From: Desulfobulbus propionicus DSM 2032
Lineage (GTDB): Bacteria; Desulfobacterota; Desulfobulbia; Desulfobulbales; Desulfobulbaceae
Reading direction: 5' to 3'
Assembly: GCF_000186885.1 (NCBI RefSeq)
Contig: NC_014972.1
Span: forward strand, 360,001-392,000
DNA: 32,000 bases
Each line of letters starts with the position of its first letter. Within the stretch, counting starts at the first letter, position 1. Below, piece after piece: positions 1-23,854 of this stretch. Made by a program: the position numbers and the translations under genes. Below the pieces are notes generated by a model that saw only the letters and a list, made by a program, of their open reading frames with translations, did not search any database and was not told where the DNA came from.

Positions 1-917
1 TTAATAAGAAATTTTTGTATTTTTTATGAAGCAAAAAAAATATCTCCGGAAATTTCTTATAAATTGACATTTTTTGATAAAAAAATAATTAGAAATATTT
101 TTAATTACAGCCTGTATAGTTTCGCTGTATCAGTCTCTTCAAGAATCATAAGTTTCACCGACGAAATAGTTGTTGGACTCTTCTTGACGGTAAGCGATGT
201 TACTTACTACGCTATTGCTGTTAATCTAGTCACTTATTTTGAAAAATTGATATGGGCTGGTGCTAGTGTTTTAGTTCCTTATATCAGTCAATTAGACTCA
301 TCCAATGACCATGAAGGGATAGAAAGGGCTTTTTACCAATCCTTTAAATATACTCTTCTTTTTACCCTTTTTATATTCTTTGGCATTATATTTTTAGGGC
401 GTCCCTTTATCGATATATGGATGGGGGAGACGTATGGAGAAAAAGCCTTTCCTGTTTTAATAATCCTAGCAACTGCTAAAGTTGTATCGCACGGGCAATC
501 GATTACTATTGCGCGTTTTTTAGGGACAAGTAATCATAAATTCCTTGGTATTATTAATTCGTTGGAAGCTTTATCAAATTTGGTGCTTAGTTTATTTCTA
601 GTTGTGCATTATCAATTAATAGGGGTTGCTATAGGAACTTGATCCCCTGTCTAATTTTTAATGGTGTCATCCTGCCAGTCTACACTGTGTATTCATTTAA
701 GATTCAACCTTCAGTTTTCTTGAAAAAGGCTCTCTTCGGGCCGTTGGCCACCTTTTCGATATCCTGTTTGATAATTTACAAATTAGATCTTACTTCACTG
801 AGATACAGCGACCTGCTTTTAAATGGTTTCCTGATGTCTTTTATATTTGGTATATTTAGCTTAATGGTTTGTCTAGATTTAAGATTATACAGGAGAGTTG
901 CTTCTAAAAATGAATAA
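1..917 (+). pseudogene. MOP/Wzx-type polysaccharide flippase, 5'-truncated by the window edge and split by a 1-nt frameshift at 637-642
   Basis: Frame 1 is open from base 1, with no stop before the listed TTG at 64, so the gene begins upstream of the window. ORFs 64..642 and 639..917 are both multi-helix hydrophobic proteins. Joined, they read ...QLIGVAIGT|LIPCLIFNGVILPVY..., as in the C-terminal half of Wzx/polysaccharide-biosynthesis proteins. The DNA reads gga act tga where gga act ttg atc would stay in frame, so one T is missing. The 3' end overlaps the next gene start by 8 nt. Confidence 0.55.
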
Positions 918-2055
918 GTTTAAAATCGCTATCATACGCCCCATTGGCTATCCTATTGATTTAAAATCATATAATTCTCAAGAAATAGGTCTCGCTAGGG
1001 CGTTAACGCTTCAGGGGGTAAATGTAGATGTTTTTTTGGCAGGTAGGACTTCAAAACCAGAGAGACAAAAAATAGTTACTACGGGGGAGGGAGAGCTACA
1101 CGTCTATCAATTGCCCTATTATAAAATCCCTGAAATAGATCATGCTATTTATCCTCATTTGAAAGGAATTTTAATTAAAAACCAATACAATCTTTTCCAT
1201 GTCAATGAAGAAAACGAAATCACGTCTTTCCTTGTTGCTAAATTGGGAAAGAAAATTGGTGTTCCAGTCGTTATTTATCAAGGTATGTATCAACAACTTA
1301 CGGGTCGAATTAGGGCAGCGTTTCAAACATTATATGATCATACTGTGTTACCTTGGTTAAGCAAGAATATTTATTTGGCTCTTGCAAAAACTACCAGTGC
1401 AGAAAAACATTTAAAAATGAAAGGTTTTGAAAATACTTTAGTAATGCCTGTGGGGCTGGACACATCTGCATTTGATAACCCTACCGAGATAGATTGGCGC
1501 GCCAAGCTTAAAATTTCCCGCCAGGCGAAGATAATTCTTTACATAGGAGTGTTTGAAAAAAGACGTAACATCCAGTTTCTGTTGGATTTGGCAAAATTAT
1601 TTATAAATAAAAGCGATTTATTTTTTGTTTTTGTTGGCAAGGGAGATGAATTTGAAACAGCTAAAATTCGCACGGAAAAAGAACAGCTTGTGAATGTCAG
1701 GTTACCAGGCCATATACCTCAAAGCGAGTTGCCTTCCTTATACAAAGAAGGTACACTTTTTTTGTTACCGAGTAATTATGAAATATACGGAATGGTTGTT
1801 TTGGAATCGATGTTTTTTGGCGTTCCTGTGATATCTACATCAACAGCTGGTCCAAAAGATATCATTGAGAATGGTATTGATGGTTACTTATTAGATAATT
1901 TAAGTCAAGAACTATGGATAAATTTAATGAACCAAGTGTTAGAAAATGACAACTTGCATTTATTTTTAAAAAATAATGCAATAAATAAAATAATTTCAAA
2001 ATTAACATGGGATAAATTATCAAAAATATACTTATCAAAGGTATGTAGAAATTAG
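910..2055 (+). CDS. Glycosyltransferase family 4 (GT-B, 'group 1')
   Basis: The C-terminal E-x7-E motif is present (EIYGMVVLESMFFGVPVISTSTAGPKDIIENGIDGYL), with the typical GT4 length and layout. I prefer the ATG at 910 (MNKFKIAII), preceded by aggag at 892-896, over the listed TTG at 898. Confidence 0.85.
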   Translation: MNKFKIAIIRPIGYPIDLKSYNSQEIGLARALTLQGVNVDVFLAGRTSKPERQKIVTTGEGELHVYQLPYYKIPEIDHAIYPHLKGILIKNQYNLFHVNEENEITSFLVAKLGKKIGVPVVIYQGMYQQLTGRIRAAFQTLYDHTVLPWLSKNIYLALAKTTSAEKHLKMKGFENTLVMPVGLDTSAFDNPTEIDWRAKLKISRQAKIILYIGVFEKRRNIQFLLDLAKLFINKSDLFFVFVGKGDEFETAKIRTEKEQLVNVRLPGHIPQSELPSLYKEGTLFLLPSNYEIYGMVVLESMFFGVPVISTSTAGPKDIIENGIDGYLLDNLSQELWINLMNQVLENDNLHLFLKNNAINKIISKLTWDKLSKIYLSKVCRN

Positions 2056-2093
2056 TTATTCATAATAATTAATAAATTATATATAATTGATTT

Positions 2094-3389
2094 ATGGAAA
2101 AAATTAACAAATATTTATATCTTTTTGGGATGTATGTTTACAATCCATTGATTAATCAAAAATTTAAATTTTTATTAAATAGCCAATATTGGAATGAAGA
2201 AAGGATTTTAGATTGGCAAATTAATTCCTGTAAAAAGCTTTTGATCCATGCTTATGAAAATTCTCCATTTTATAAAAAATTTTTTAAAGATGTGTCTTTT
2301 CAACCGCAAAATTTTAGAAGTCTTGAAGATTTGAAATTTATTCCTACCACAAGTAAGTCGTTAATTCTTGAAAATTCTACTTATATTCAAAATTTTGTAC
2401 CAAAAGAGAAACACTTTTATTCAGAGACATCTGGTAGTAGTGGAACCCCTTTGATCTTTTACCGTAATGCCACATGGGATGCTTGGCATAGAGCATCGGT
2501 TTTAAGAGGGTATCATTGGTACGGAATAAATCCTTGGGAGAGAAACGGCTATTTGTGGGGTTACAACTTTTCTTTCAAGAAACGATTAAAAGTACGTCTA
2601 CTTGATGCACTTCAAAACAGATTTCGCTTGTTCTCGTATAATGATCAGGAAATTTTTGTTTTTATAAAAAAACTTGAATCAGCAAAATTTCTTGGTGGAT
2701 ATTCTTCCATGATTTATGAGATAGCTAAACAGTTAAACGGAATGTCAAATTCTCGACGATTTTCTTTGAAAATGATTAAAGGTACTTCAGAAAAAATATT
2801 TGATTATTATCAACAAGAAGTTGAGCGAGCTTTTGGTCAAAGAATCATAAGTGAATATGGTTCAGCAGAGGCTGGAATTATTGCATTTGAATGCCCATCA
2901 GGAACGCAACATCTTAATATGGAAACAGCAATAGTTGAAGTTGTTGATAATGAAATAGTAGTAACAAACTTAGTTTCATATTCATTTCCTATAATCAGAT
3001 ATAAATTAGGTGATTTTGTTCAATTAAGTTCAAGTACAAAATGTTCATGTGGTGTAATGCATGGTGCAATAAATGAAGTATTTGGAAGAGTTGGGCGAGT
3101 AATCTATGGAAAAACTCAAAGGTATCCAAGTTTAACCCTTTATTATGTTTTCAAGAATTTAGCGATGGAAAGAAATTTGGTTTTTAATTATCAAGCTCGA
3201 CAAAACGTTAAAGGGGCAATGGAAATTCTAATAGAACAGCATGTCGATCGAGAACAACATCGAATTCTTATAAGTGAATTCGAAAAATATTTTTCTTCTG
3301 ATATTGAATTAAAGATTATTGATGACGTGAGTTTGAAATCAACTGAGGGAAAAAGATTAGATTTTATTAGTTCAATAATTGATGGATAG
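2094..3389 (+). CDS. CapK/PaaK-like adenylate-forming enzyme (phenylacetate-CoA ligase / coenzyme F390 synthetase family)
   Basis: An AMP-binding P-loop-type motif, YSETSGSSGTPLIFY, lies at nt 2427-2450. Size (431 aa) and position inside a glycan cluster match CapK-like proteins. Confidence 0.7.
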   Translation: MEKINKYLYLFGMYVYNPLINQKFKFLLNSQYWNEERILDWQINSCKKLLIHAYENSPFYKKFFKDVSFQPQNFRSLEDLKFIPTTSKSLILENSTYIQNFVPKEKHFYSETSGSSGTPLIFYRNATWDAWHRASVLRGYHWYGINPWERNGYLWGYNFSFKKRLKVRLLDALQNRFRLFSYNDQEIFVFIKKLESAKFLGGYSSMIYEIAKQLNGMSNSRRFSLKMIKGTSEKIFDYYQQEVERAFGQRIISEYGSAEAGIIAFECPSGTQHLNMETAIVEVVDNEIVVTNLVSYSFPIIRYKLGDFVQLSSSTKCSCGVMHGAINEVFGRVGRVIYGKTQRYPSLTLYYVFKNLAMERNLVFNYQARQNVKGAMEILIEQHVDREQHRILISEFEKYFSSDIELKIIDDVSLKSTEGKRLDFISSIIDG

Positions 3390-3394
3390 CCAAA

Positions 3395-4369
3395 ATGGAC
3401 CTTTCAGTCATCATACCCGCTAAAAATGAAAGTTTATTTTTAAAAATTTCAGTTCCAGCACTATGGGTATCAATTAATAAATCTAACATTATAGCAGAAA
3501 TTATTTTAGTTGACAATGGGTCAGAAGATGACACAGAATCGGTAGCCCGTTCTTTGGGGTGCAAAATTCTATCAAGTCCTCAAGGATCTATCGCAAAATT
3601 GCGAAATTTAGGAGCTAGCCAGGCTCAGGGAACCTATCTTGCTTTTGTTGACGCAGACTGTGCTGTACATGAAGATTGGGTCTCCACTTGCATAGAAAAT
3701 CTTAATCATCTCAAAGTTGGTGCTACAGGAACTCGTGTCGTTCCTGCTTCAGAAAAAGCTACTTGGGTCAGCTGGGCTTGGTTCAATTTAGCAGCTGGGT
3801 CTAAGAGAAAAGAGAATGTATCTTGGCTTGGTTCTTCAAACTTAATGTTAAAAAAATGTCTTTTTGATGAATTAGGTGGATTTAATGAAGGTTTAAAAAC
3901 TGCAGAAGATTTTGATCTTACTACACGTTTAAAAAAAACACATAGAATTAAATTAGAAAAAAATATTGACACGATTCACTATAGAGAGCCTGAAACAATC
4001 AAGGAACTTTTTATTAAGGAATCATGGAGGGGAAGTTCAAGCCTCGCCTGCTATATCAGCAATGGTTGCCAATTTGGTGAGTTAGGCAGTGTCGCTATAC
4101 CTATGTTTGTGAATATATGCATAGGAATGCTTGTCATTTTTTTGTTAACAAATTTATCATTAACACCTATTGCCATTTTCCCGATAATTATTTTACCTTT
4201 TATTCTTATGATAAAAAAAGGCGTTCCATTTAATTCATTCATGATCGTTGTTCAAACATATATAGTTGCCTTCATCTTTATTTTGGCAAGATCGGTTTCT
4301 TTGGCTCGTGAAATTTACTATATTTTATTTAGAAGGAGTGATGTTAATATCTGGAAAATCTGTCGATGA
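3395..4369 (+). CDS. Glycosyltransferase family 2 (GT-A) with C-terminal transmembrane region
   Basis: The N-terminus is LSVIIPAKNE...ILVDNGSEDDT...FVDADC (GT2 nucleotide-binding and DxD motifs). The C-terminal ~100 aa form 3-4 hydrophobic helices. The gene starts 5 nt after the previous stop. Confidence 0.85.
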   Translation: MDLSVIIPAKNESLFLKISVPALWVSINKSNIIAEIILVDNGSEDDTESVARSLGCKILSSPQGSIAKLRNLGASQAQGTYLAFVDADCAVHEDWVSTCIENLNHLKVGATGTRVVPASEKATWVSWAWFNLAAGSKRKENVSWLGSSNLMLKKCLFDELGGFNEGLKTAEDFDLTTRLKKTHRIKLEKNIDTIHYREPETIKELFIKESWRGSSSLACYISNGCQFGELGSVAIPMFVNICIGMLVIFLLTNLSLTPIAIFPIIILPFILMIKKGVPFNSFMIVVQTYIVAFIFILARSVSLAREIYYILFRRSDVNIWKICR

Positions 4370-5305
4370 AATAATAACATTATCGATCGCATAGTACTGT
4401 TCCTTCATTTCTGAAGGATCAGCGTATAAGTTGTAGGCGTTACCGCCAATTGCAACTATATTCCACCCAAGATTACCAGGGCTGCTGCTTCCCATCCACT
4501 GGATGTCATTCCGGCTGTATTCTAATGTCCCATCTACCCAAAACTTGACAACTCCATCTTTTGCCCCAGGAGAAGTATTCATTTTTACATACCACTTCAT
4601 TCGGTGCCAAGCACCATCTCCTAATTTCTGCTCAAATGTAGATTTCTCCGTAAAGGTAAAACTTTTGTCATATGAATCTGCGCACCAATAATTGGTTTCT
4701 TGAGGGTCACAGCGATGGCTATGAAAATGTCGAAAACCATATTGGTTATAAGATGTATCGTAAATATAAGCTGGTGCATTGCTTCCAGTAGTAAAAAATT
4801 GAAAAGGACTACCAAGCCTATCCCAATGATAAAATCTAACCATTTTTACGGCAGCCCCACTACTTGTATTCCAGTTCCATTGAAAACCTGGTTGGAATAT
4901 AATGTGTAAAAAAACATAGAGTTCCTGAAAGTCTTTTCCCAAATCTTTTGCCAATATGCCATCAGCACCCCAGCCATCCCCACTTCTTCCGTTATTTGAC
5001 TCATTCCAGACGGTGAGAGCCTTTCCGGAAGTACCTTTATGATTTTCTTCTGAAATCTGGATGGTTGGGTGGTATTTTGGTCCATCGGAGTTTGGATGCC
5101 ATAATTCATCATTACGGTAATAATCCCACCCTGCTGGTAATTTGTTTTTACACGACGAGTCGCTACATCCTTCCTCTTCAGTCTGCGGAAACCAATCTTC
5201 CTTTTTATCAAAGTTTTCAAGAAATATAACTTCAGCCTTTGACACTGTTATGTTACAAAATGTGAATATTGTGAATGTTAGTATCATTATTGTTTTTATT
5301 TTCAC
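4325..5305 (-). CDS. Secreted ConA-like lectin/glucanase-fold protein, possibly a polysaccharide lyase-like enzyme
   Basis: GTG start at 5305 with SD caGGAGtaaccc. Signal peptide MKIKTIMILTFTIFTFCNITVSKA. The C-terminal pattern GVVKFWVDGTLEYSRNDIQWMG...IGGNAY...YYAIDNVIIS is typical of ConA-fold / PF14099-type polysaccharide lyases. The function is inferred only. The 3' end overlaps the GT2 3' end by 45 nt in convergent orientation. Confidence 0.5.
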   Translation of the reverse strand: MKIKTIMILTFTIFTFCNITVSKAEVIFLENFDKKEDWFPQTEEEGCSDSSCKNKLPAGWDYYRNDELWHPNSDGPKYHPTIQISEENHKGTSGKALTVWNESNNGRSGDGWGADGILAKDLGKDFQELYVFLHIIFQPGFQWNWNTSSGAAVKMVRFYHWDRLGSPFQFFTTGSNAPAYIYDTSYNQYGFRHFHSHRCDPQETNYWCADSYDKSFTFTEKSTFEQKLGDGAWHRMKWYVKMNTSPGAKDGVVKFWVDGTLEYSRNDIQWMGSSSPGNLGWNIVAIGGNAYNLYADPSEMKEQYYAIDNVIISSTDFPDINITPSK

Positions 5306-5500
5306 GGGTTACTCCTGTCTCTAAATGCTTTTGAATTGTAATCATGCTATAGGTTATTTTGATTGGTAGAGTAGCATCCTAAAGTTAATTGTTGAGCCTC
5401 TTGCAAAAAAAAAGTCGCCTATCATCATATTTCTGAAAAAATAAGAGGGAAAACCTCCAAAGAAACGTGAGGTGAATTTTCACTCTCTCGGTATGACTTG

Positions 5501-5527
5501 AAAAAGTGTTCAGTTCTTTATTGAACA
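5501..5527 (-). terminator. Weak rho-independent terminator candidate after the PKD/CBM-like gene
   Basis: The minus strand reads TGTTCA-ataaagaac-TGAACA followed by CTTTTT. The stem is 6 bp and AT-rich. It lies about 60 nt downstream of the stop at 5585. Confidence 0.35.
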
Positions 5528-5584
5528 TTCAGCTATGGCATATATTCGATTATTTTGCAATAAGCTTAATTTTTTGTAGTCTCC

Positions 5585-6427
5585 TTATTGGGAGACAATT
5601 TTAACCCAGCATAATTTCGCGGTGTCGGAAGTTTGAAAAGTCAAGGACAGCCTGTTGTCAGTAACAGTAGTTATAATTTCACGTGTTATCCAAGGGTTTA
5701 AGGAACTGAGGCGTTCGGCAGTTATCAAAGCTGCACCCTCAACTTGCACCCCTTGGGTTCTATCTGGTGCAGAAGGGTCACCGACTGTCACCGTGACAAG
5801 GTACTTTCCATTTGGTACGATATGTTCCCAGACAGCTGTTGGGGCTACATGAATAAGAGTATCAAAAGATTGGTCAGGAGACAATAAGCTGTTACGATCC
5901 CTCGTCCCTTCCGCAGCAGGTGGAGAAACCCAGCCATACCCCACCGCATCGTCAAAATTACTCCCACTGTCCATCGTAAACCCTGTCGGGACAGGTGCAG
6001 AAGCAGGCTGGAAATTAATGGCAATCTGGACAGGTGAGGCAAGACTGACATTTTCCTGAGTCATAGTTACGCCACCGCTATTATCAACAATTGTTAAAGT
6101 TACAGGGGAAATTCCTCCCCCTTCAAAACTGTGTGTTACTGTTATTCCGGAATCCTTGACGCCATCTCCAAAGTCCCAAATGTAACTCACGATACTCCCA
6201 TCCGAATCACTCGCCCCACTCGCATCAAAAGTATAAATATCGCCATTTTTAGTATAGGTAAATAACGCCACTGGCGGTTTGTTAATTTTCTGAGCATCGG
6301 TGATGGCGACCCCTTTGAGGCTACCAGAAAAGCCGGTATTAGCCATGGATGGCGGTGCCATGGTGGTTAAAAACAGGACTAGGGTTGCTGCATGGAGAAC
6401 CTTAGTAGATGCTGCTGTTGTTTTCAT
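5585..6427 (-). CDS. Secreted PKD-domain protein with C-terminal beta-sandwich (malectin/CBM-like) domain
   Basis: I prefer the ATG at 6427 (MKTTAASTKVLHAATLVLFLTTMAPPSMA signal peptide), preceded by AGGAGA 7 nt upstream. PKD signature: FDASGASDSDGSIVSYIWDFGDG...VTLTIVDNSGG. The C-terminal region INFQPASAPVPTGFTMDSGSNF...YGW... resembles malectin/CBM-type domains, which is an inference. Confidence 0.75.
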   Translation of the reverse strand: MKTTAASTKVLHAATLVLFLTTMAPPSMANTGFSGSLKGVAITDAQKINKPPVALFTYTKNGDIYTFDASGASDSDGSIVSYIWDFGDGVKDSGITVTHSFEGGGISPVTLTIVDNSGGVTMTQENVSLASPVQIAINFQPASAPVPTGFTMDSGSNFDDAVGYGWVSPPAAEGTRDRNSLLSPDQSFDTLIHVAPTAVWEHIVPNGKYLVTVTVGDPSAPDRTQGVQVEGAALITAERLSSLNPWITREIITTVTDNRLSLTFQTSDTAKLCWVKIVSQ

Positions 6428-6521
6428 TGTATGTCTCCTGGTGCTTCTTTGGTCTTCAAGTTGGTTGCTGAATTTATTGGCCAATGATGAGAACCGGACT
6501 TAACTCTATGGCTTTGTGGTT

Positions 6522-6798: not shown

Positions 6799-9510
6799 TC
6801 ATGGCGTATAGTTCAGGCTGTTTGAGGCATTGCCCACTCCACCGGTGGTATCAACCGCCTGGATGGTGAAGGCGGTCGGGCCGGTTGGCATGGTCATTTC
6901 ACAGCTCAGTTGCCGGTCGGCAGGTTTGTTGCAGGTGCAGACCACCGTGCCATTGGCGAGAATCTGGAAGCCGCTGATGGTGCTTTCCTGGGTTGCATCA
7001 AACTCCCAGGTAAAGGTTGCCAGCACCTTTTCCTCTTTCTGGCTGAGAGCAATGTAGCCGATGGCCTCCGCTGGGTGGGCGACTTCCGTATCTTTGGATT
7101 GCTCTTCTTCGACTTTTACCTCGAAACCGGTTGCTGACAGTTTTTGCATTCGCAAAGCCGAAGTGTCGGTGTTGACGGTTGTCTGCATGTCGGCCAGAAG
7201 CAGCGGGGCTGCTGAGTAAGGACTTGGGAAGGCGACCGCATACCACGCCTGTGTGACAACATTGGCTGTGGCGGCAACCCTGTATTGCAGTGAGCCGAGA
7301 CTTCCCTCGCCGGGTTCCCAGGCGAGGTAGTTGATGGTTTCATTGATATGCTTGTTGGTATTTTTTTCCTGCTCGCGGAAATAGTAGGCAAAGCCACTGG
7401 TCGTGACGTCCTTGATGCGGCCACTGATGGTGTCGGTCTCGTTGTTGGAAGCGATCGTGGTCATCATCACCGGCTTTTTGCTGAAAGCCTGGTTGAAGGG
7501 AATCGTTGCAAAACTGGTTTTGCCCGTGAAGCTGCCTGCTTCGACCATGGAGCCGTCGGGCAAGGTATGGTGCCCTTTTTCTATCACGAGATAGCTGGCC
7601 GTCTCCTGCGGATGCGCTCCGTCGAGATAGTTCCACTCGGTGAATTTGATATCAAAGCCGGTGGCATCGACATTGCGCAGGCGAATCACACCCGGGGCGG
7701 GATCATTAAAACTTGCTGGCCCGGCAATGACAACCGGATTCTGGAAAGTAGAACTCAGCGAAACACGAACCCACTCGCCTGTCACTGCGACCTCGCCTGT
7801 TTCGATGTTCAGGTTCGCGGCGGTTTCTTGCGGTTTGACGGTGATCGTTGTCGAGGTTGTCGCGGTGGCCCCCAAATCGTCGGTGACCTGGAGGGTGGCG
7901 ATGAAACTTGCCTCCGTGGTGTAGGTATGGGAGACGGTCTTGCCACTTGCGGAACTACCGTCGCCAAAATGCCACGTGTAGGAGGCGATGGAGCCGTCGC
8001 TGTCGGTGGACGCCGAACCATCGAAGGAAACGGTCAGCGGGGTCGAGCCGCTGGTTGGCGTGGCGCTAAGAGCCGCTTTTGGGGCAATGTTGGCGGCTGC
8101 GGCAGTGACAACCACTGGGGTGGAGGCTGAGCTGGTGAGACCGTTACTATCGGTCACGGTCAGCTCGGTGGTATAGGTGCCGGCGGCGGTAAATGAATGG
8201 GTTGCGGTGGCACCGGTTGCTGTGCTGCCGTCACCAAAGCTCCAGGCGTAGCTGGTGATAGTGGCTAAGCCGGTTGCCGTGGAACCTGTGCCATCGAAGT
8301 TGACCGAAAGCGGTGCCGGCCCTGCTGCCGAGGAAGAGGAGAGCACGGCGGTTGGCGGAATGGCCGCGACTGCCGGTTCGGTGACGGTGACGGAGACAAT
8401 GGCCGTGCTGCTGGCGCCCGTGGTGTTCGTTACCGTCAGCTTGGCCGTATAGGTTCCGGCCGAGGCGTATTCATGGCTGGCCGTGCTGGTCGCGGCAATC
8501 GAGCCATCGCCAAAATCCCACTGATACTGGCTAATCGTGCCGGTTGAAGAACCTGCGTTGAAATTCACAGTGACCGGCGCTGTGCCGGTGACCGGCGTGG
8601 CCTGGATAACGGCCTGAAGCGTTGCCGTGTCGTCGGTGGAGGTTGTGGCGGGAGTATAGGCAAGTAAATTGGACAGGCTGCTTTCCGTGCCATCGGCGTT
8701 GACCGCTTTCACTCCATAAACCAGGTTGCCGCTGGGGACATCAACGGTGCAGGTCAGATTGCGGGCCGCAGGGTCGGTGGTCTCGCAAATGGGCAGATTG
8801 TTTTGATAGATGCGGAATCCGCTAATGCTGGACGCATCGCCACTATACTCCCAGGAAAAGCCGAGCAGTTTGAAGGTAAAGGTTTCTGGGTAAGCGGTCG
8901 GATTAAAGACCAGCAGGTTGGAGAGCCCGCTTTCCGAGCCGTCGGTATGTACCTGGCTCATACTGAAGATCATTTCGCCGGGGAGCAGGTTGGCCGTGCA
9001 GGCAATGGAGGTGTCCGTCGGGCTGGTTGTTTCGCACAGGCGCGTGCTGTTGAGATAGAAGCGATAACCGGCAACATTGGAGAGGTCGGTCGGCTGCTCC
9101 CAGGAAAAGGTGAACAGCTTGTTGCCGATTGAGCTGGAGACCGGTGTTTTCGTGGTCGCGCTGTCGTCCGTTGTGCCGGTATCACCAGAGGTATCGGTTC
9201 CAGTAGAACCGTCAGAGGTAAAGGCAAAGGGGGCGGAATGGGGGCTTTCGCTGCCGTCGCTGAAAGTGGCTGTCAGGGTAAAATTGGTGGTTGCCGCCGT
9301 AAGTGTGACCTCACAGTCCATGGCAGTTGCATTGGGGTTCTGGGTCTGGCAGACGGGCGCTCCCTCCTGATAGAGTTTGAACCCGGTCACCGCTGGTTCG
9401 CTTGGGGGGGTGTATCCCCACTCCACGTGGATGGACTGGGCCGCGGCTGATACGGCAATGGACAATCCGCAGAAAAGGAGGGCTAGGAGGCGGATAATTT
9501 TTCGTTGCAT
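6799..9510 (-). CDS. Large secreted mosaic surface protein (FN3-like Cys-pair modules + 3 PKD + 3 H-type-lectin-like repeats)
   Basis: I prefer the ATG at 9510 (MQRKIIRLLALLFCGLSIAVSAAAQ signal peptide), giving 903 aa. There are three WxFGDG PKD signatures, repeated modules and a Thr/Ser/Asp-rich linker. I saw no cell-wall, PEP-CTERM or lipobox anchor. Confidence 0.85.
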   Translation of the reverse strand: MQRKIIRLLALLFCGLSIAVSAAAQSIHVEWGYTPPSEPAVTGFKLYQEGAPVCQTQNPNATAMDCEVTLTAATTNFTLTATFSDGSESPHSAPFAFTSDGSTGTDTSGDTGTTDDSATTKTPVSSSIGNKLFTFSWEQPTDLSNVAGYRFYLNSTRLCETTSPTDTSIACTANLLPGEMIFSMSQVHTDGSESGLSNLLVFNPTAYPETFTFKLLGFSWEYSGDASSISGFRIYQNNLPICETTDPAARNLTCTVDVPSGNLVYGVKAVNADGTESSLSNLLAYTPATTSTDDTATLQAVIQATPVTGTAPVTVNFNAGSSTGTISQYQWDFGDGSIAATSTASHEYASAGTYTAKLTVTNTTGASSTAIVSVTVTEPAVAAIPPTAVLSSSSAAGPAPLSVNFDGTGSTATGLATITSYAWSFGDGSTATGATATHSFTAAGTYTTELTVTDSNGLTSSASTPVVVTAAAANIAPKAALSATPTSGSTPLTVSFDGSASTDSDGSIASYTWHFGDGSSASGKTVSHTYTTEASFIATLQVTDDLGATATTSTTITVKPQETAANLNIETGEVAVTGEWVRVSLSSTFQNPVVIAGPASFNDPAPGVIRLRNVDATGFDIKFTEWNYLDGAHPQETASYLVIEKGHHTLPDGSMVEAGSFTGKTSFATIPFNQAFSKKPVMMTTIASNNETDTISGRIKDVTTSGFAYYFREQEKNTNKHINETINYLAWEPGEGSLGSLQYRVAATANVVTQAWYAVAFPSPYSAAPLLLADMQTTVNTDTSALRMQKLSATGFEVKVEEEQSKDTEVAHPAEAIGYIALSQKEEKVLATFTWEFDATQESTISGFQILANGTVVCTCNKPADRQLSCEMTMPTGPTAFTIQAVDTTGGVGNASNSLNYTP
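7045..7809 (-). repeat. Three diverged ~75-85-aa repeats resembling H-type lectin domains
   Basis: The pattern F..P(V/L)(V/M/L)......(D/N).......R(L/I/M)..(V/L)(T/S)..GF......(W/E)......E...Y(L/I)(V/A)(I/W/L) recurs at listed-ORF residues ~620-677, ~705-765 and ~793-855. The family assignment is from memory of the PF09458 pattern. Confidence 0.45.
7834..8613 (-). repeat. Three tandem PKD domains
   Basis: The signatures are QYQWDFGDGS...YTAKLTVTNTTG, SYAWSFGDGS...YTTELTVTDSNG and SYTWHFGDGS...FIATLQVTDDLG. Each unit is about 85 aa. Confidence 0.85.
8650..9435 (-). repeat. Three tandem ~75-aa FN3-like modules with a conserved cysteine pair; a fourth copy lies at the C-terminus (6802..7026)
   Basis: Modules at listed-ORF residues 59-130, 163-238, 243-320 and 862-936 share W-E...(V/I)xG(F/Y)(K/R/Q)(L/F/I)Y...C(E/Q)T...C...DG(S/T)ES..SN. 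Confidence 0.6.
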
Positions 9511-9560: not shown

Positions 9561-9576
9561 TGCATGCAATGTGCCA
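9561..9576 (-). promoter_or_regulatory. Sigma-54 (-24/-12) promoter candidate for the large surface-protein gene
   Basis: The minus strand reads TGGCAC-attgc-ATGCA, against the consensus TGGCAC-N5-TTGCW. GG and GC have exact consensus spacing. It lies about 50 nt upstream of the ATG at 9510 and just downstream of a 20-nt pure A/T tract (9585-9604). Confidence 0.6.
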
Positions 9577-9686: not shown

Positions 9687-10475
9687 TCAACGAGCCGTGG
9701 TAATCGCCCACCGGGCCCATTCATACTGGGCGGAGGAAAGATCATTTTTTTTGTTATCGATAAATTTGGCCAGCGAGGCCGTGGAATCGAAAGTGATGGA
9801 ATAATAGCCGTCGGCGTGGGCGCCACGACCGAGCAAAGTTGCCTTGCCAGAACGGTCGATCCCCACCATGAGGTCGAGATTCTTGTAAATGATGGCCTCG
9901 GCGGTACGGGTTACCGTGCCGTACTTCGACTCCATGTAAAAGCGGTAGGTGAATCCGGCAACCACAACGATGAGAACCAAGGCGAGACTGGAGGCCAGCT
10001 TGGCATAGGGGGTGTAGCTTTGGGGGTTGAAGAAATCGCGGAGGGTCAGACGAACGTGACGATGGATGGCTTGGTGAATATCGGTCAGGCGGGCGAGACA
10101 GGGTTGCACCGCCTTGCCGGTGTATCGCTCGACGCTGGCAATGGCTTCGTTGTCCGAGGGATCGGTCATGGCCAGATTGAGGATATGGTCGCCTTCAAAC
10201 CCCAGCGGCAGCACTTCAAATTTTTTGCAAAGATAACGGGGCAACACCCCCCGCGCGGCATCGGTAAAACCCTGATCGGGATCAATGACCGGCAACTGCA
10301 ACTGTTGGGAGAGCACCTCCGTCAGCTGGTCACTGGTGATTGCCCCCATGTTGACCAGAATCCTTCCCAGCCTGCGAGTGCCCCCAACCTGCATTTTCAG
10401 AGCGCGGTCGACAACTTCTTGAGCAACCAAACCGGCATCGAGCAGGAGTTCTCCTAAACGCTTTTTTTCGGCCAT
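9687..10475 (-). CDS. Membrane-anchored MshEN (T2SSE_N) domain protein, predicted c-di-GMP receptor lacking the ATPase domain
   Basis: ATG at 10475 with SD GAAGGAG 7 nt upstream. Tandem motifs RLGELLLDAGLVAQEVVDRALKMQ and RLGRILVNMGAITSDQLTEVLSQQ are separated by 5 residues (nt 10302-10460). The GspE-N-like fold continues to about residue 140. One TM helix (LASSLALVLIVVVAGFTYRFY) is followed by an ~85-aa C-terminal domain. Confidence 0.8.
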   Translation of the reverse strand: MAEKKRLGELLLDAGLVAQEVVDRALKMQVGGTRRLGRILVNMGAITSDQLTEVLSQQLQLPVIDPDQGFTDAARGVLPRYLCKKFEVLPLGFEGDHILNLAMTDPSDNEAIASVERYTGKAVQPCLARLTDIHQAIHRHVRLTLRDFFNPQSYTPYAKLASSLALVLIVVVAGFTYRFYMESKYGTVTRTAEAIIYKNLDLMVGIDRSGKATLLGRGAHADGYYSITFDSTASLAKFIDNKKNDLSSAQYEWARWAITTAR

Positions 10476-10508
10476 GACGTTTCTCCTTCAGAAGGCGAGG
10501 GAAGATGT

Positions 10509-10649: not shown

Positions 10650-11294
10650 TTAATGATCTGAAGAGGATCGAATTCGGAACAAGATCAGTAAGCCGGTGAA
10701 AAAAAGAACGACAGATGAAGGTTCCGGAACGGGAGCGGCGGAACGGACGGCGATGGCATAGGCATGGCTGTTGGTTGTTTGCAGAAATTGCGCGCCGTAA
10801 CCGAAATCAAAGGCCCAGGCACTGGCCATCCCACCCAAAAGCATATCCGATTTGCTTCCAAACCAATAGCAATCGGGCAGCAAGAACGGTTCAAGAGGCG
10901 ATGTTTTCGCGGCTAACTCCTCAATGGTGTTGGGCGCCTGATGCTGCTTGGATGCAAGATTCAGAGTATTGTAATACAGCTGTCCCAGCTCACTGACGGT
11001 GACATTATATTTAGCATCGTTGCCACCGTCATACCCCCAAGTGCCATCGGGTGTATAGGGTAGCCGCCAATCAGCATACCCACCGTACTTACTGTTATTC
11101 AAGGCGTCGATCCAATCATTGGCCCCTTGCCAAGTCATTTTGCCGGCCATGGCCGCATTCGTGGTCCAATAGAAATGGCGGTCGGCATCGTAGAGCAGGT
11201 TGCCGTGGATACTCAGACTGTCCGCAAAGCAGGAAGAAAAAGGGAGCAGGAAGATTGCCAAGAAACTCACGGAAAAAGAAGTTCGCGTGGGCAC
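10650..11294 (-). CDS. DUF1566 (Lcl C-terminal domain-like) protein with PEP-CTERM sorting signal
   Basis: GTG start at 11294 with SD GGGAGG. N-terminal signal peptide FLAIFLLPFSSCFA. DWRLPY...SELGQLYY is typical of DUF1566. The C-terminus VPEPSSVVLFFTGLLILFRIRSS has PEP, a TM helix and a basic cluster. Confidence 0.8.
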   Translation of the reverse strand: MPTRTSFSVSFLAIFLLPFSSCFADSLSIHGNLLYDADRHFYWTTNAAMAGKMTWQGANDWIDALNNSKYGGYADWRLPYTPDGTWGYDGGNDAKYNVTVSELGQLYYNTLNLASKQHQAPNTIEELAAKTSPLEPFLLPDCYWFGSKSDMLLGGMASAWAFDFGYGAQFLQTTNSHAYAIAVRSAAPVPEPSSVVLFFTGLLILFRIRSSSDH

Positions 11295-11777: not shown

Positions 11778-11987
11778 AGAACCTCCTTTGATGGGATTGA
11801 AGGGAAAAAATGAACACGTCCTGGCTCGATGTTAGGGAAGAATCGGATGCGCTGTCAAATTGAAAAAACGCCTAACTGTTCAATGTAGCGAGACGAATGG
11901 CTGGAATCCTTTGTGCGGCAGCGCTTTTGGAGCACAAGGGGTGTCTCGATTTTTTTTGGTTCATCTGATGAACGCCAAGGAACGTGT

Positions 11988-13697
11988 ATGTCAACGTTGT
12001 CATCCATTGATTACTCTGAAAGCTTGATTGTCCATTTTCGGCGGGCTGAACTCTTGCGGGACGAAGCGGTCGGACTGGTATCCCTGGACCTCAACAGCCG
12101 CCAACTCTGTGATCTTGAGTTGCTGTTGCATCGCGGCTTTTATCCGTTGAGCGGTTATCTGAACCAGGACGATTACCTGCAGGTCCTGGAAACAATGCGG
12201 CTTGCCGATGGGACGGTTTGGCCGATGCCGATCTGTCTGGATGTCAACGTCGACGTGGCCGCCTCCTTGCAACCAGGGCAGCGGGTGGCCCTAAATGACC
12301 AGGAAGGATTCCTGCTCGCCATTCTCACGGTCGGCGAGGTATGGCATCCGGACAGGGAGCACGAGGCGGAAGCGGTCTACGGCACCACCAACCCTGACCT
12401 GCACCCAGGGGTGAAGAATCTCTACCAGAAAACAGCCGAATGGTATGTTGGGGGACAGGTGGAGGGCGTATCGCTGCCCATTCATTATGATTTTCGCAAT
12501 CTTCGCCTCACGCCGGCAGAAACGCATCGGCGGTTTACCCAGTACGGCTGGCGGCGGGTGCTCGGATTCCATACCCGTGAATACTTGCATTGCGCCCACC
12601 GGGAAATGGTCTTGGCCGCGGCCCGTGAGATCAATGCCTCCATTTTCATTCATCCGGCCGCGGGACTGGATCATCCAGGCAATCGGGACCATTACACCCT
12701 GGTGCAGTGCTATCAGGAGTTTATCACCCATTTCCCGGCCAATATGATTCTGCTGGGGATCGTCTCCCTGGCGGACCGGTTTGCCGGCCCCCGCGAGGCG
12801 CTGTGGCACGCGATGATCAGGAAAAATTTCGGTTGCAGTCACTTCATGGTGGCCAAGGACCATGGCGACCCCTTTGCCGGCTCGGACCAGCCGTTATTTT
12901 ACCCCCAAGGCGCGGCCCAGCAGTTGGTGGCTCGGATGGCCGGGGAAACGGGTATCGCCATGGTGCCCGAACGGGCTATGGGCTATGTGGAAGAAAAAGC
13001 CCAGTATGTGTTCCTGGAAAATGTCGGGGAGCATGAGTCGGTCAAGACCATCACCTCGCAGGAACTCAAGCGGCGTCTGGAATGGGGGCTGGAGATTCCG
13101 GAATGGTACTCCTATCAAAACGTTATCCAGGCCCTGCGCCGTGCCTTTCCGCCACGATCCCGGCAGGGGTTTACCGTCTTTTTGACGGGATTGTCCGGGT
13201 CCGGCAAATCGACCATCGCCAAGGTGCTCATGGTGCGCTTCATGGAGATGGGCAACCGGCCGGTGACTCTGTTGGATGGCGACATCGTGCGGAAAAATCT
13301 TTCCTCGGAGCTCAACTTTTCCGAAGCGCACCGCAATCTCAACGTCACCCGTATCGGTTTTGTGGCCAGCGAAATCACCAAGAACGGCGGCATCGCCCTG
13401 TGCGCGCCGATCGCGCCCTATGAAGCATCGAGAGCCGCCAACCGGGAATTGATCAGCCGCTATGGGGGGTATATCGAGGTCTATGTGTCGACCCCGCTTG
13501 AGGTCTGCGAGCAGCGGGATCGAAAGGGGCTGTACGCCAAGGCCAGGAAAGGGCTGGTCAAGGGAGTGACCGGCATTTCCGACCCGTATGTGCCGCCGGT
13601 CAATCCCGAGTTGACCATTGACACCAGCACGATGACCCCGGCCGAGGCGGTGCAGGAAATCCTGCTCTATCTTGAAGAACAGGGCTATATCAGCTGA
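11988..13697 (+). CDS. cysC: Two-domain adenylylsulfate (APS) kinase with N-terminal ATP-sulfurylase-like domain that has degenerate catalytic motifs
   Basis: I prefer the ATG at 11988 (MSTLSS), with aagga about 9 nt upstream. The C-terminal half has GLSGSGKST, LLDGDIVR and GISDPYVPPVNPEL. The N-terminal half has the sulfurylase fold, but QTRNPxHRAH is HTREYLHCAH and GRDHAG is AKDHGD. Confidence 0.85.
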   Translation: MSTLSSIDYSESLIVHFRRAELLRDEAVGLVSLDLNSRQLCDLELLLHRGFYPLSGYLNQDDYLQVLETMRLADGTVWPMPICLDVNVDVAASLQPGQRVALNDQEGFLLAILTVGEVWHPDREHEAEAVYGTTNPDLHPGVKNLYQKTAEWYVGGQVEGVSLPIHYDFRNLRLTPAETHRRFTQYGWRRVLGFHTREYLHCAHREMVLAAAREINASIFIHPAAGLDHPGNRDHYTLVQCYQEFITHFPANMILLGIVSLADRFAGPREALWHAMIRKNFGCSHFMVAKDHGDPFAGSDQPLFYPQGAAQQLVARMAGETGIAMVPERAMGYVEEKAQYVFLENVGEHESVKTITSQELKRRLEWGLEIPEWYSYQNVIQALRRAFPPRSRQGFTVFLTGLSGSGKSTIAKVLMVRFMEMGNRPVTLLDGDIVRKNLSSELNFSEAHRNLNVTRIGFVASEITKNGGIALCAPIAPYEASRAANRELISRYGGYIEVYVSTPLEVCEQRDRKGLYAKARKGLVKGVTGISDPYVPPVNPELTIDTSTMTPAEAVQEILLYLEEQGYIS

Positions 13698-13729: not shown

Positions 13730-14683
13730 ATGGTGGCACGTAGCCCAAATGGTTGGTGGGTCCCCTGGCTCGGTCTGTCGTTGCTGGCCGGTCTGCCGTT
13801 CTTTTTTTGGGGCGGGCCTGGGTATTACTCATCCCGGTCGTTCAAGGCGGCCTGGGATCTGGGGCACGTCCTTTTTTTCGCGCTCCTGTCCGTGTGGCTG
13901 CATGCCGTCGTGCGCGCCAAGGTGTCGGCTTGGTCGCCGTTTCGGCTCTTTGTCACGCTGTTTATCGGCGTGTTCCTGGCCGGTGTCACGGCGGAGGGGT
14001 TGCAGATGCGGTGGGTGGGGCGCAGTCCCGATATCGACGATGTCCTGCGCAACCAGTTGGGTTGCTTGACGGCCTTTGCCTTTTTCATCCGCCCGGCATT
14101 GTTGCGTCACACTCCGCAACGCTGGTTCCGTGTGGCGGTATCGCTGGCGCTGTGTGTCACCCTGTGGCCCCTGTCGCGGGCCCTGATCGACGAGAGCCTT
14201 GCCGCCCGGCAATTTCCGGTGCTCGCCGATTTTGAAACCCCCTTTGAGCGGTATCGCTGGAACAATGCCCGCCAACTGCGCAAAGAGACGACAACGGTCC
14301 GGCACGGCAACACCGCCATGCGGGTCCAGTTGTCCACGGCAAAATATTCCGGGGTGGCCTTGTTTTATTTTCCCGGCGACTGGCGTGGATACGCAACCCT
14401 GCATTGCAGCGTCTATAATCCGCAACCAGCGGGGCTGGTGCTCAATTGCCGCATTCATGATACCCACCACAAGGAGCACGGTTCCGAGTTCAGCGACCGT
14501 TTCAATCAGCAGTTCATCCTGCGCCAGGGGTGGAACGATTTGGTTGTCTCCCTGGACAAGGTGAAGAACGCCCCCAGAAGCCGCTCCATGGACATGGGGC
14601 ATATCGAGGGGTTTGGTCTGTTCGTCGTTCAGCAGGACAGCCCGATGGAAGTCTATCTAGACCATGTTTATCTGGGCAGGTAA
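13730..14683 (+). CDS. VanZ-like membrane protein fused to a C-terminal beta-sandwich (CBM11-like) domain
   Basis: The N-terminal 4-5 TM helices carry the VanZ pattern H...E..Q...R..D..DV..N..G (GHVLFF...TAEGLQMRWVGRSPDIDDVLRNQLG). The C-terminal ~170 aa (GNTAMRVQL...GDWRGYATLHCSVYN...GWNDLVVSL...VYLDHVYL) resemble a carbohydrate-binding module. The gene starts 32 nt after cysC. Confidence 0.6.
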   Translation: MVARSPNGWWVPWLGLSLLAGLPFFFWGGPGYYSSRSFKAAWDLGHVLFFALLSVWLHAVVRAKVSAWSPFRLFVTLFIGVFLAGVTAEGLQMRWVGRSPDIDDVLRNQLGCLTAFAFFIRPALLRHTPQRWFRVAVSLALCVTLWPLSRALIDESLAARQFPVLADFETPFERYRWNNARQLRKETTTVRHGNTAMRVQLSTAKYSGVALFYFPGDWRGYATLHCSVYNPQPAGLVLNCRIHDTHHKEHGSEFSDRFNQQFILRQGWNDLVVSLDKVKNAPRSRSMDMGHIEGFGLFVVQQDSPMEVYLDHVYLGR

Positions 14684-18702: not shown

Positions 18703-19170
18703 TCAGGGGAGGGGATGCCGGGAGCTCTCTTCCGCGTACAGCTTGTGAAAAGCCTCCACATAGTTTTCCAGGATGCCGCGGTCGTTCTCGGAGAGGTGGA
18801 AAAATTCAATGCCGTTGTGATAACGGCCTGCCGAGCCGGTCGTATAGACAACACGTCCCATCACATCAATCAGCCGATCCTTCAGCCCCAAGGTGATCAG
18901 CACCTGCTGGCCCTGCTGCAACGGGAGATGCGTTTCCATCAGAATCCCTCCCTTGCTGACATTCAGTGTTCGGGCCATGGAATACGCGCCCTGCCGTCCT
19001 TGTTCGTCCACGACGAGGTAATCAAGTAAATTTAATGATTCTGGCCGGATGTATTGTCTGCGTTCCGTGGTCATGTCAATCGTGGTGCGTGGTTTGAGGG
19101 ACAGGGAGCCCGCTTGTTCCCGGGAAACCTTGGAAGGGTGTGTGCGGGGTGGCATGTAAAATTGGTACAT
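18703..19170 (-). CDS. Single-domain PilZ protein (c-di-GMP binding)
   Basis: RxxxR (RQYIR) and N-x-S-x-x-G (NVSKGG) motifs are 27 residues apart (nt 18946-19062). The start is uncertain: ATG at 19170, or ATG at 19074 (MTTERRQYIR). Confidence 0.75.
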   Translation of the reverse strand: MYQFYMPPRTHPSKVSREQAGSLSLKPRTTIDMTTERRQYIRPESLNLLDYLVVDEQGRQGAYSMARTLNVSKGGILMETHLPLQQGQQVLITLGLKDRLIDVMGRVVYTTGSAGRYHNGIEFFHLSENDRGILENYVEAFHKLYAEESSRHPLP

Positions 19171-19348
19171 CAAGTCTACAGGTTGCCTTGTGCTTTGTCA
19201 AATCGCGCGGGATGAAAACAAAAGGCACGACAATTTTGTTTGTTTATTTTGTTCGCATGACAAATATGTTGCGTATGTCTGAATGGTTTGTGGCGAATTT
19301 TGTCTTTTTATCTTTTTATTTCATGCAATTAAATCAGAAAAAATAAAA

Positions 19349-19592: not shown

Positions 19593-20813
19593 ATGATCAA
19601 CGGTGCGGACACTGCGTTTATTTTGGCGGCGGCGGGACTGGTCTTGCTGATGACCCCGGGCCTGGCGCTGTTTTACGCGGGGATGGTGCGGAGTAAAAAT
19701 GTGCTGGGCACCATCATGCAGAGTCTTGTGCTGATCTCGCTCGTCTCCCTGGAATGGGTCTATCTGGGGTATTCGATGTCCTTTGGCCCGGATGTCGGCG
19801 GTGTTATCGGTGATCTGTCCTGGGTGGGCCTCAAGGGTGTGGGGACCGCGCCGAGCGCCGTCTACGCCACCACCATTCCGCATTCGGTGTTCATGATCTA
19901 CCAGTGCATGTTCGCGGTGATCACGCCGGCCCTGATCGCCGGAGCCTTTGCCGAGCGGGTCCGCTTTCCCGCCTTTGTGGCGTTCAGCCTGCTGTGGGCC
20001 GTGCTGGTGTACAACCCCGTGTGTCACTGGATATGGGGCAGTGGCGGTTGGCTGGCGAAACTAGGGGTGCTGGATTTTGCCGGTGGATTGGTGGTCCATG
20101 CGACCTGCGGCGCCGCGGCCCTGGCCTCGGTCCTGGTCATTGGGCCGCGAAGGGGGTACGGGCAAACCAACTTCATGCCTCACAATCTGCCGATGACCAT
20201 GCTTGGCACCGGCCTGCTGTGGTTCGGCTGGTTTGGCTTCAACGGGGGCAGCGCTTTGGCGGCCAACGAGCTGGCGGCAACGGCCTTTGTCGCCACCCAT
20301 CTTGCCGGAATGTCCGGGATGGCCATGTGGACGGTGATGGAGTGGATCAAGCTGGGCAAGCCCACCACCCTGGGGGCAGCCTCCGGCGCCATCGCCGGCT
20401 TGGCCACCATTACCCCGGCGGCGGGTTTTGTTGGTCCCAATGCGGCGATTGTCATCGGCTTGATAGCGGGCGTTGTCTGCTATGGGGCGGTCAACATGAA
20501 GAGCCGGTTCAAGTTCGATGATTCGCTGGACGTGGTCGGCATCCACGGTGTGGGCGGGGTGAGCGGCACCCTTTTGTTGGGCGTGTTTGCCTCCAAGTCG
20601 GTCAATCCGGCGGGGGTCGATGGGTTGCTCGCCGGCAACGGCGCACAGTTGGGGACGCAGCTAATCGGCGTGGGTGTGGTCTGCGCCTATGCCTTTACCG
20701 TCAGCTGGCTGATTCTCAAGGGGGTGCAGGCGGTGATCGGGTTGCGCATCACCGAGGAAGCCGAGCATCAAGGGCTTGACTACACCGAGCATTCGGAAAC
20801 GGCCTACAACTGA
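19593..20813 (+). CDS. amtB: Ammonium transporter (Amt family)
   Basis: The 406-aa polytopic protein carries Amt signatures (DFAGGLVVH, GWFGFNGGS, VHGVGG). SD GGGAGGGGAG lies directly upstream. Confidence 0.93.
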   Translation: MINGADTAFILAAAGLVLLMTPGLALFYAGMVRSKNVLGTIMQSLVLISLVSLEWVYLGYSMSFGPDVGGVIGDLSWVGLKGVGTAPSAVYATTIPHSVFMIYQCMFAVITPALIAGAFAERVRFPAFVAFSLLWAVLVYNPVCHWIWGSGGWLAKLGVLDFAGGLVVHATCGAAALASVLVIGPRRGYGQTNFMPHNLPMTMLGTGLLWFGWFGFNGGSALAANELAATAFVATHLAGMSGMAMWTVMEWIKLGKPTTLGAASGAIAGLATITPAAGFVGPNAAIVIGLIAGVVCYGAVNMKSRFKFDDSLDVVGIHGVGGVSGTLLLGVFASKSVNPAGVDGLLAGNGAQLGTQLIGVGVVCAYAFTVSWLILKGVQAVIGLRITEEAEHQGLDYTEHSETAYN

Positions 20814-20852
20814 TGGCCGGGCCAGGCAACAGGCATCGCGGGGTGAGTCTGA

Positions 20853-21208
<356 letters not shown>

Positions 21209-21209
<1 letters not shown>

Positions 21210-23827: not shown

Positions 23828-23836
23828 TCGAAAAAT

Positions 23837-23854
23837 AATCCGGTGTGCCGGATT
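23837..23854 (+). other. Intercistronic hairpin between glnD and glnA
   Basis: AATCCGG-tgtg-CCGGATT is a 7-bp stem with a tetraloop. It lies 10 nt after the glnD stop and is followed by gcttaatc rather than a clean U tract. It could be a partial terminator or an RNA-stability element. Confidence 0.35.

Follow-up and report, generated by a model that had tools for sequence, protein, structure and literature searches.

The DNA analysed here is a stretch of 32,000 nucleotides from Desulfobulbus propionicus DSM 2032 (contig NC_014972.1, positions 360,001 to 392,000), referred to as the window. On its minus strand lies an open reading frame (ORF), with its ATG at 10475-10473 and its stop codon at 9689-9687, whose product is 100% identical to a database protein (ADW16542 / WP_015723089) that goes by the names of 'General secretory system II protein E domain protein' or 'hypothetical protein'. 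In minus-strand order this gene follows those of a ComEA-like protein and an Lcl_C/PEP-CTERM protein, and precedes a 936-residue ORF, hereafter the partner gene, and the gene of a smaller PKD protein (Table 1). We are highly confident of the architecture proposed for the product and of its assignment as a receptor: it would be a bitopic inner-membrane protein made of an MshEN cyclic di-GMP (c-di-GMP) receptor domain, one transmembrane (TM) helix and a C-terminal domain, and it is called here the MshEN-TM protein. The AlphaFold2 (AF2) model of the full-length protein reached a mean pLDDT of 84. Pfam and NCBIfam scans revealed no T2SSE ATPase domain, glycosyltransferase or other known output domain in it and, together with the sequence and fold matches to MshE given below, they bear out the preliminary description of this locus, which had spoken of an orphan MshEN domain without an ATPase.

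Table 1. Features of the MshEN-TM gene, its product and its surroundings, in coordinates of the window.
Feature	Position	Strand	Basis or remark
MshEN-TM gene, 262 aa	9687..10475	minus	ORF listing; 100% identity to database protein
Shine-Dalgarno-like AAGGAG, 7 nt 5' of the MshEN-TM ATG	10483..10488	minus	direct sequence reading
MshEN_N motif copy 1, residues 6-29, RLGELLLDAGLVAQEVVDRALKMQ	10389..10460	minus	regular-expression match; inside NF053729 match
MshEN_N motif copy 2, residues 35-58, RLGRILVNMGAITSDQLTEVLSQQ, with A45 off the strict motif	10302..10373	minus	inside NF053729 match
MshEN_C / T2SSE_N1 subdomain, residues 60-143	10047..10298	minus	PF05157; Foldseek to 5HTL and PilF GSPII domains
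Juxtamembrane linker D-x-F-N-P-Q, residues 147-152	10020..10037	minus	alignment conservation
Predicted TM helix, residues ~158-178, small-residue face	9942..10004	minus	Kyte-Doolittle, AF2, column conservation
C-terminal domain of ~80 aa, residues 183-262, five beta-strands then two helices, predicted periplasmic	9690..9929	minus	AF2
Sigma-54-type -24/-12 element, TGGCACATTGCATGCA, ~50 nt before the partner ATG	9561..9576	minus	pattern match, 1 mismatch
Partner gene: signal peptide, FN3-like Cys-pair modules, 3 PKD, H-type lectin region	6799..9510	minus	PKD_4 2.3e-55, H_lectin 3.7e-07
Second, smaller PKD protein, often third in the cassette	5585..6484	minus	PKD_4 4.5e-18
Lcl_C protein with C-terminal PEP-CTERM signal, directly upstream of the MshEN-TM gene	10650..11294	minus	PF07603 1.1e-11; TIGR02595 19.1 bits vs 16
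Bifunctional ATP sulfurylase/APS kinase	11913-13697	plus	divergent from cassette
VanZ-like membrane protein	13730-14683	plus	divergent from cassette
Stand-alone PilZ protein, second predicted c-di-GMP receptor	18703-19173	minus	PF07238 E 7.5e-12

The N-terminal half of the protein carries the two tandem repeats expected of an MshEN_N region. The strict MshEN motif comprises 24 residues, RLGxx(L/V/I)(L/V/I)xxG(L/V/I/F)(L/V/I)xxxxLxxxLxxQ, and both copies had been said to fit it with a single deviation, V22 at the first L position of copy 1. This stood for copy 1, which was also the only one matched by a regular expression for the strict motif, and did not stand for copy 2, in which A45 occupies motif position 11, where L, V, I or F is expected. 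Both deviations are conservative and fall inside the relaxed search motif of Wang et al. (2016), to which the two copies do conform, and the gap between them is of five residues (VGGTR, residues 30-34), as had been stated. The 53-residue NCBIfam model NF053729, 'c-di-GMP_motif', aligns over its whole length with residues 6-58 (E 3.3e-15; 55.6 bits, where the cutoff is 38), while the Pfam MshEN family PF05157, the T2SSE_N similarity that had been anticipated, matches the subdomain that follows (E 5e-13, 49.3 bits against a gathering cutoff of 23.1), and by these two matches residues 1-145 form a complete MshEN domain, that is, MshEN_N plus T2SSE_N1. Vibrio cholerae MshE (5HTL) was matched by sequence (E 3.8e-16), as were the Thermus PilF domains, and the best fold match of the AF2 model found by Foldseek in the PDB was again 5HTL, which is c-di-GMP-bound MshE (E 3.8e-10, TM-score of 0.68 on the target, 32-33% identity). 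The modelled helices of MshEN_N span residues 7-13, 19-30, 36-42 and 48-59 and are succeeded by a beta/alpha subdomain, reproducing the four-helix bundle and the T2SSE_N1 fold.

Binding of c-di-GMP by the MshEN-TM protein is well predicted from two features, namely the near invariance of the motif residues and the lack of substitutions known to abolish binding in a homologue. Among 117 full-length relatives, R6, L7, G8, L11, A25, L26 and Q29 of copy 1 are 97-100% conserved and R35, L36, G37, L40, L51, L55 and Q58 of copy 2 are 96-100% conserved, and the predicted binding site is, judging from these columns, under strong selection. Xanthomonas XpsE is an MshEN homologue that does not bind the nucleotide and for which inactivating substitutions have been published; in our own reading of the aligned positions against that list, none of them occurs in the MshEN-TM protein. 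The existence of such homologues, the single strict-motif deviation in each copy and the fact that position 10 of copy 1 (G15) is a glycine in only 62% of the relatives could be taken to mean that the domain has lost its ligand and serves as an interaction module only, as in XpsE, within a structural component of a surface-protein or exopolysaccharide (EPS) system. We consider this improbable, because the R, L, G and Q residues of both copies and their leucine clusters are the very ones that are retained, the NF053729 score exceeds its curated cutoff, V22 and A45 are tolerated by the relaxed motif and the XpsE-type changes are absent.

Past the MshEN domain, the protein has the single TM-type segment that had been described. 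The best 19-residue hydrophobic window (158-176) scores 2.1 on the Kyte-Doolittle scale, with no more than 0.85 in the rest of the protein, and across the 117 members the helix core has a mean of 2.25 and a minimum of 1.79, a charged residue being present in only 3 of them. AF2 draws one helix of 30 residues, 156-185. The linker that leads into it is also well conserved: F149 is invariant and D147 and N150 reach at least 90% in one alignment (A1), and N150, P151 and Q152 are kept in 88%, 91% and 86%, respectively, of the 117 relatives. Within the helix, the conserved positions A161/S162, A165, L166, L168 and A173/G174 define a face that may serve for packing with itself or with a partner helix. 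Because the protein crosses the membrane once and the MshEN domain has no signal peptide and needs a cytoplasmic ligand, the C-terminal domain is predicted to be periplasmic; the N-in/C-out topology thus follows from the cytoplasmic need of MshEN and from nothing else.

The folded C-terminal domain of about 80 residues, which could not be assigned in the preliminary description, has resisted assignment here as well. No Pfam or NCBIfam family matched it, the Pfam scan over 39 members gave scattered noise alone, its profile retrieved no PDB sequence even at an E value of 10, and two folds returned by the PDB fold search did not reach significance, namely PipX, also built of five strands plus two helices (E 0.23, TM-score 0.36-0.40), and the polo-box domain. 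Modelled alone, it nevertheless adopts antiparallel strands with a pLDDT of about 89-90 and a predicted TM-score (pTM) of 0.77, and it is modelled confidently within the full-length protein too. It is aromatic-rich, contains no cysteine, and equals the MshEN_C part in conservation (the top residue has a mean frequency of 0.70 vs 0.68). When its profile was run against 1.84 billion representative proteins, 52 were found, essentially all of them with the MshEN-TM architecture of about 255-290 residues or fragments thereof. Weak multi-stretch matches to long repetitive proteins (P0152, P0158, P0162-P0167 and P0169) were treated as spurious, and the three that were inspected (P0152, P0164 and P0166) are unrelated repeat proteins matched over a short strand-turn segment. 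A singleton of 294 residues, P0135 (L085, 389-1273), lacks MshEN and has an N-terminal membrane anchor directly before the homologue of the C-terminal domain, followed by an extra region of about 150 residues and a second, C-terminal hydrophobic helix, its gene adjoining one for an SNase-domain protein. That P0135 is a frameshifted full-length gene was ruled out, since the upstream DNA encodes an HNH-like protein, and the variant indicates that the C-terminal domain is autonomous. As modelled, this domain is a previously undescribed type of folded domain.

The full-length family consists of 123 clusters at 90% identity, with lengths of 255-290 residues, and occurs in 59 species-representative genomes. 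Its hosts are of the Desulfobulbales type (Desulfobulbus, Desulfogranum, Desulfopila, Desulfocapsa, Desulforhopalus and the cable bacteria of Candidatus Electrothrix), and the only exceptions, by label, are three short contigs of metagenome-assembled genomes attributed to Stahlbacteria, Bacteroidales and Neomarinimicrobiota (loci L028, L046 and L062), which are probably mis-binned; over the residues compared, the partner gene of L046 matches that of the Desulfobulbaceae locus L044. Beyond Desulfobulbales, the scan of species-representative genomes matched the MshEN part alone, in ordinary PilB/GspE ATPases, and two seemingly longer matches (L065 and L081) turned out to be such ATPases as well. 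One bin, MFD05684.bin.2.19, has two paralogous MshEN-TM genes (L052 and L053), neither of which lies beside a PKD gene, and one of them is near Hsp70-like and NADH-dehydrogenase-like genes. The database name of the D. propionicus protein could suggest an artefact, in which the gene of a pilus or secretion ATPase had been cut short and what was left of it ended in a hydrophobic tail by chance. This is effectively refuted, given that both length and full-length sequence are maintained throughout the 123 clusters and 59 species, that the C-terminal part shows both conservation and a confident fold prediction, that the gene has a good ribosome-binding site and that no ATPase-coding remnant comes after it; family-wide conservation excludes a pseudogene or truncation.

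The gene directly downstream was correctly recognized beforehand as that of a large secreted lectin/PKD protein, with a signal peptide, three PKD domains and an H-type lectin domain by Pfam. Its likely start is Met34 of the ORF, at 9510. The protein also contains four FN3-like modules with a conserved pair of cysteines (...G[FY].LY.[EQN]...C....A..[LM].C.V...), which Pfam sees only faintly, as Ig_RIMBP2, and the first of which opens 1-3 residues past the signal-peptide cleavage site with the pattern IH[VI]EW.Y...G[FY].LY.EG...C...MDC in most loci, including distant ones. The survey of PKD/lectin co-occurrence that had been called for covered the 49 species-level loci for which 1.5 kb or more of downstream sequence was available, and in it a neighbour was counted when its start lay on the same strand within 2.5 kb. 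An FN3-like/PKD gene was found downstream in 40/49, at a median distance of 326 nucleotides to the first match, and 22 of these also have the H-lectin region. The partner orthologues are 41-60% identical over more than 600 residues where the MshEN-TM protein itself is only 45% identical. The smaller PKD gene follows at about 3 kb downstream in most loci of the Desulfobulbus clade, and the upstream Lcl_C/PEP-CTERM gene, which marks an exosortase context, is kept in only a subset of the related loci. Genes for the exosortase EpsH, EpsI, a histidine kinase with a sigma-54 response regulator, sugar transferases and sulfate activation recur near the loci of relatives, and MshEN-TM loci are often in exosortase/PEP-CTERM polysaccharide regions.

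As for transcription, the sigma-54-type element ahead of the partner gene (TGGCAC-N5-xTGCA) recurs in loci of the Desulfobulbus clade (L001-L023), where it lies 104-145 nucleotides past the MshEN-TM stop codon, and in several distant ones (range L001-L064), where the spacing varies more, and it is consistent with the sigma-54 response regulator encoded nearby in relatives. No such element was found upstream of the MshEN-TM gene, around which a scan for promoters and terminators performed no better than on shuffled sequences. Rfam families, including the c-di-GMP riboswitches, were absent across the window, meaning that no c-di-GMP riboswitch precedes the PKD gene.

Putting receptor and partner together, we envisage that c-di-GMP would bind the cytoplasmic four-helix bundle of MshEN and alter the packing or the oligomeric state of the MshEN-TM protein at the membrane, a change that would travel through the TM helix and modify the activity of the periplasmic C-terminal domain. 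The target would be the product of the neighbouring gene, a Sec-secreted matrix or adhesin protein with FN3-like, PKD and H-lectin parts; high c-di-GMP may help to retain, position or assemble this protein on the cell surface or exopolysaccharide, the setting being the exosortase/PEP-CTERM polysaccharide loci. The partner would then be subject to two layers of control, a sigma-54-type promoter for its transcription and a post-translational one exerted by the MshEN-TM protein in response to c-di-GMP. That the MshEN-TM protein acts in such an inside-out manner on the neighbouring protein is a plausible reading, which we put forward tentatively and would stop short of calling probable.

Several observations weigh against it. 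The partner gene probably has its own enhancer-dependent, sigma-54-type promoter, as suggested by the element before it, in which case co-transcription with the receptor gene would not be required. Nine of the 49 loci have no FN3/PKD neighbour: in three of them its place is taken by the tetratricopeptide repeat (TPR) lipoprotein of exosortase systems, PrsT (TIGR02917, 366.6 bits against a cutoff of 312.2), and six have neither immediately downstream, some of these with housekeeping genes as neighbours. The PKD gene of one metagenome locus, L004, runs in the convergent direction. Conformational signals would pass only poorly through one TM helix and a short linker, unless the protein oligomerizes. 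The lysines and arginines flanking the helix are symmetric (2.64 vs 2.56), so the positive-inside rule alone leaves the orientation unfixed. Finally, the MshEN part comes closest to its counterpart in NfrB-type glycosyltransferases (NF012033, E 1.7e-20, vs 1.4e-12 for PilB), a likeness that would also fit a regulation of polysaccharide synthesis on the cytoplasmic side.

That last point leads to the main competing explanation, in which the MshEN-TM protein would be a cytoplasmic-side adaptor: the tethered, c-di-GMP-loaded MshEN domain would recruit or activate an EPS component, such as a glycosyltransferase, a Wzx/Wzy-type protein or a chain-length tyrosine kinase, and the C-terminal domain would only anchor, localize or oligomerize it, resembling the regulation of NfrB by MshEN in cis or the binding of GspL by the N1 subdomain. 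Besides the proximity to NfrB-type enzymes, which are c-di-GMP-activated (NF008411 is also matched, at 2.4e-12), the fold matches show MshEN-like docking sites, those between the PilB N-terminus and PilZ (7LKM) and between EpsE N1 and EpsL (2BH1), the loci are rich in EPS genes, and in L012 the direct neighbours, in place of the PKD protein, are a priming sugar transferase and nucleotide-sugar enzymes. Against it, the C-terminal domain is conserved as strongly as MshEN_C and is virtually confined to this one architecture, the neighbour that recurs most regularly, by a wide margin, encodes a secreted protein and not a synthase, and no specific cytoplasmic partner is conserved beside the gene; on balance, an adaptor of this sort seems rather unlikely. 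The evidence from architecture and synteny is neutral as to direction, and the flow could also be outside-in, with the periplasmic domain sensing the state of the matrix or EPS and setting c-di-GMP sequestration or the cytoplasmic partner of MshEN. This appears very unlikely, since MshEN has no known enzymatic or DNA-binding output to read an incoming signal and a receptor with a stoichiometry of about 1:1 would be a poor sink; nor is any precedent known to us.

Inside-out action, in turn, would place the protein beside a few well-known systems. To our knowledge, LapD is the main case of cytoplasmic c-di-GMP sensing that controls an event outside the inner membrane. It has two TM helices with a periplasmic LapD/MoxY domain between them, a HAMP domain and a degenerate GGDEF-EAL pair, and it sequesters the LapG protease in the LapA adhesin system. 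The logic proposed to be shared is that of cytoplasmic sensing of c-di-GMP leading to a periplasmic event that fixes the fate of a large surface adhesin, as the preliminary description had suggested, although neither LapD-defining domains nor a LapG-like protease were found by Pfam and NCBIfam in the MshEN-TM protein or its neighbours, and the former has one hydrophobic segment only. In topology, Alg44 of the alginate system is at least as close an analogue as LapD: it joins an N-terminal, cytoplasmic PilZ domain, which is its c-di-GMP receptor, through a single TM helix to a periplasmic part resembling membrane-fusion proteins. The topology follows the same logic as that of the MshEN-TM protein and also belongs to a secreted-polymer system, except that the receptor is PilZ and not MshEN. 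No PilZ or HlyD-type match, nor any relation in sequence or fold to Alg44, was detected in the MshEN-TM protein by the Pfam and PDB fold searches.

The relatives that share the receptor domain itself differ in what is attached to it. The MshE, PilB and PilF ATPases of type IV pili and those of type II secretion systems (5HTL, 6EJF and 8PDK) have the same N-terminal domain, with two 24-residue motifs, a five-residue linker and T2SSE_N1, but MshE, PilB and GspE continue into a T2SSE ATPase (PF00437, with Walker A and B motifs), whereas the MshEN-TM protein lacks it and ends at residue 262. Matches to TIGR02538 and TIGR02533 were confined to their N-terminal ~140 positions and far below the cutoffs, and no pil or gsp gene cluster surrounds the MshEN-TM gene. 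The NfrB-type synthases that fuse a family 2 glycosyltransferase (GT2) to MshEN (PMC8669469; Wang et al. 2016, Supplementary Table 4) likewise present a membrane-associated MshEN in an exopolysaccharide context, but they carry the glycosyltransferase, which is missing from the MshEN-TM protein, where MshEN is N-terminal and the output domain would lie outside the membrane. The matches to NF012033, which gave the best full-length NCBIfam score, and to NF008411 were limited to the MshEN region of those models, positions ~482-624. The EpsG-type chain-length tyrosine kinases (MshEN_N–AAA_31) of methanolan/exosortase EPS loci, listed in the same supplementary table, share the MshEN_N motif, and residues 6-69 match TIGR03029 (EpsG) weakly (E 5.7e-06); these kinases, however, have the MshEN_N half only, joined to a P-loop kinase, without a TM helix or a periplasmic domain of the MshEN-TM type. 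PA3740 of Pseudomonas aeruginosa is, again in that table, an orphan MshEN without an ATPase, recorded there with MshEN and a divergent N1 only and with no mention of a membrane helix or extracytoplasmic domain. Although the MshEN fusions tabulated by Wang et al. (2016) include ATPase, REC, GAF, HD-GYP, glycosyltransferase, kinase, CheX and M23 peptidase partners as well as 'UNK', the combination of MshEN, TM helix and small periplasmic domain is absent from their Supplementary Table 4. A search of the literature by accession, by architecture and for c-di-GMP in connection with PEP-CTERM or cable bacteria returned nothing on this protein or its family, which agrees with the preliminary description, whose author was aware of no characterized member with this architecture.

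On the grounds of sequence and fold, then, the MshEN-TM protein falls within the MshEN domain family and does not belong with MshE/PilB, NfrB, LapD or Alg44. We regard it as a candidate c-di-GMP receptor whose output module is new and restricted to one lineage and whose secreted partner is conserved. A wider claim can be formulated, that of a second inside-out c-di-GMP pathway, structurally unrelated to LapD, specific to Desulfobulbales, cable bacteria among them, and tied to exosortase/PEP-CTERM EPS systems, in which a periplasmic fold not seen before, borne by a single-pass MshEN receptor, holds, releases or organizes a secreted FN3/PKD/H-lectin matrix protein; taken as a whole, that claim is doubtful at present. 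Receptors for c-di-GMP are far fewer than the enzymes that make or break it and, as far as we know, the regulation of exosortase/PEP-CTERM systems is largely obscure beyond a two-component pair. Should the inside-out pathway be real, the MshEN receptor class would gain a new output module and a new small periplasmic fold, c-di-GMP would become tied to exosortase/PEP-CTERM systems, and a concrete pair of genes, for a receptor and a secreted PKD/lectin protein, would be available in sulfate reducers and cable bacteria, organisms with a little-understood surface and matrix biology. If the output were cytoplasmic instead, the MshEN-TM protein would still be an unannotated c-di-GMP effector of polysaccharide loci.

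The remainder of the window adds to the polysaccharide setting of the cassette. Positions 1-6500 form a block of low GC content (29-41% vs about 60% elsewhere) that encodes a Wzx-like polysaccharide protein, a family 4 glycosyltransferase (GT4), a CoA-ligase-like protein, a GT2 and an unassigned protein of 326 residues, and it has the look of an EPS gene island, either variable or gained by horizontal transfer, beside the conserved cassette. The bifunctional ATP sulfurylase/APS kinase, divergent here, stands directly beside the MshEN-TM gene in several distant loci (L005, L020, L040, L050, L056 and L061), which hints at a sulfated polysaccharide. The stand-alone PilZ protein speaks for c-di-GMP signalling in the organism, and a PilZ gene is equivalently placed in the D. 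elongatus-type locus L001. Lastly, a block of nitrogen-regulation genes on the plus strand (19593-25216), coding for an ammonium transporter, the uridylyltransferase GlnD and glutamine synthetase, is unrelated to the MshEN-TM protein.

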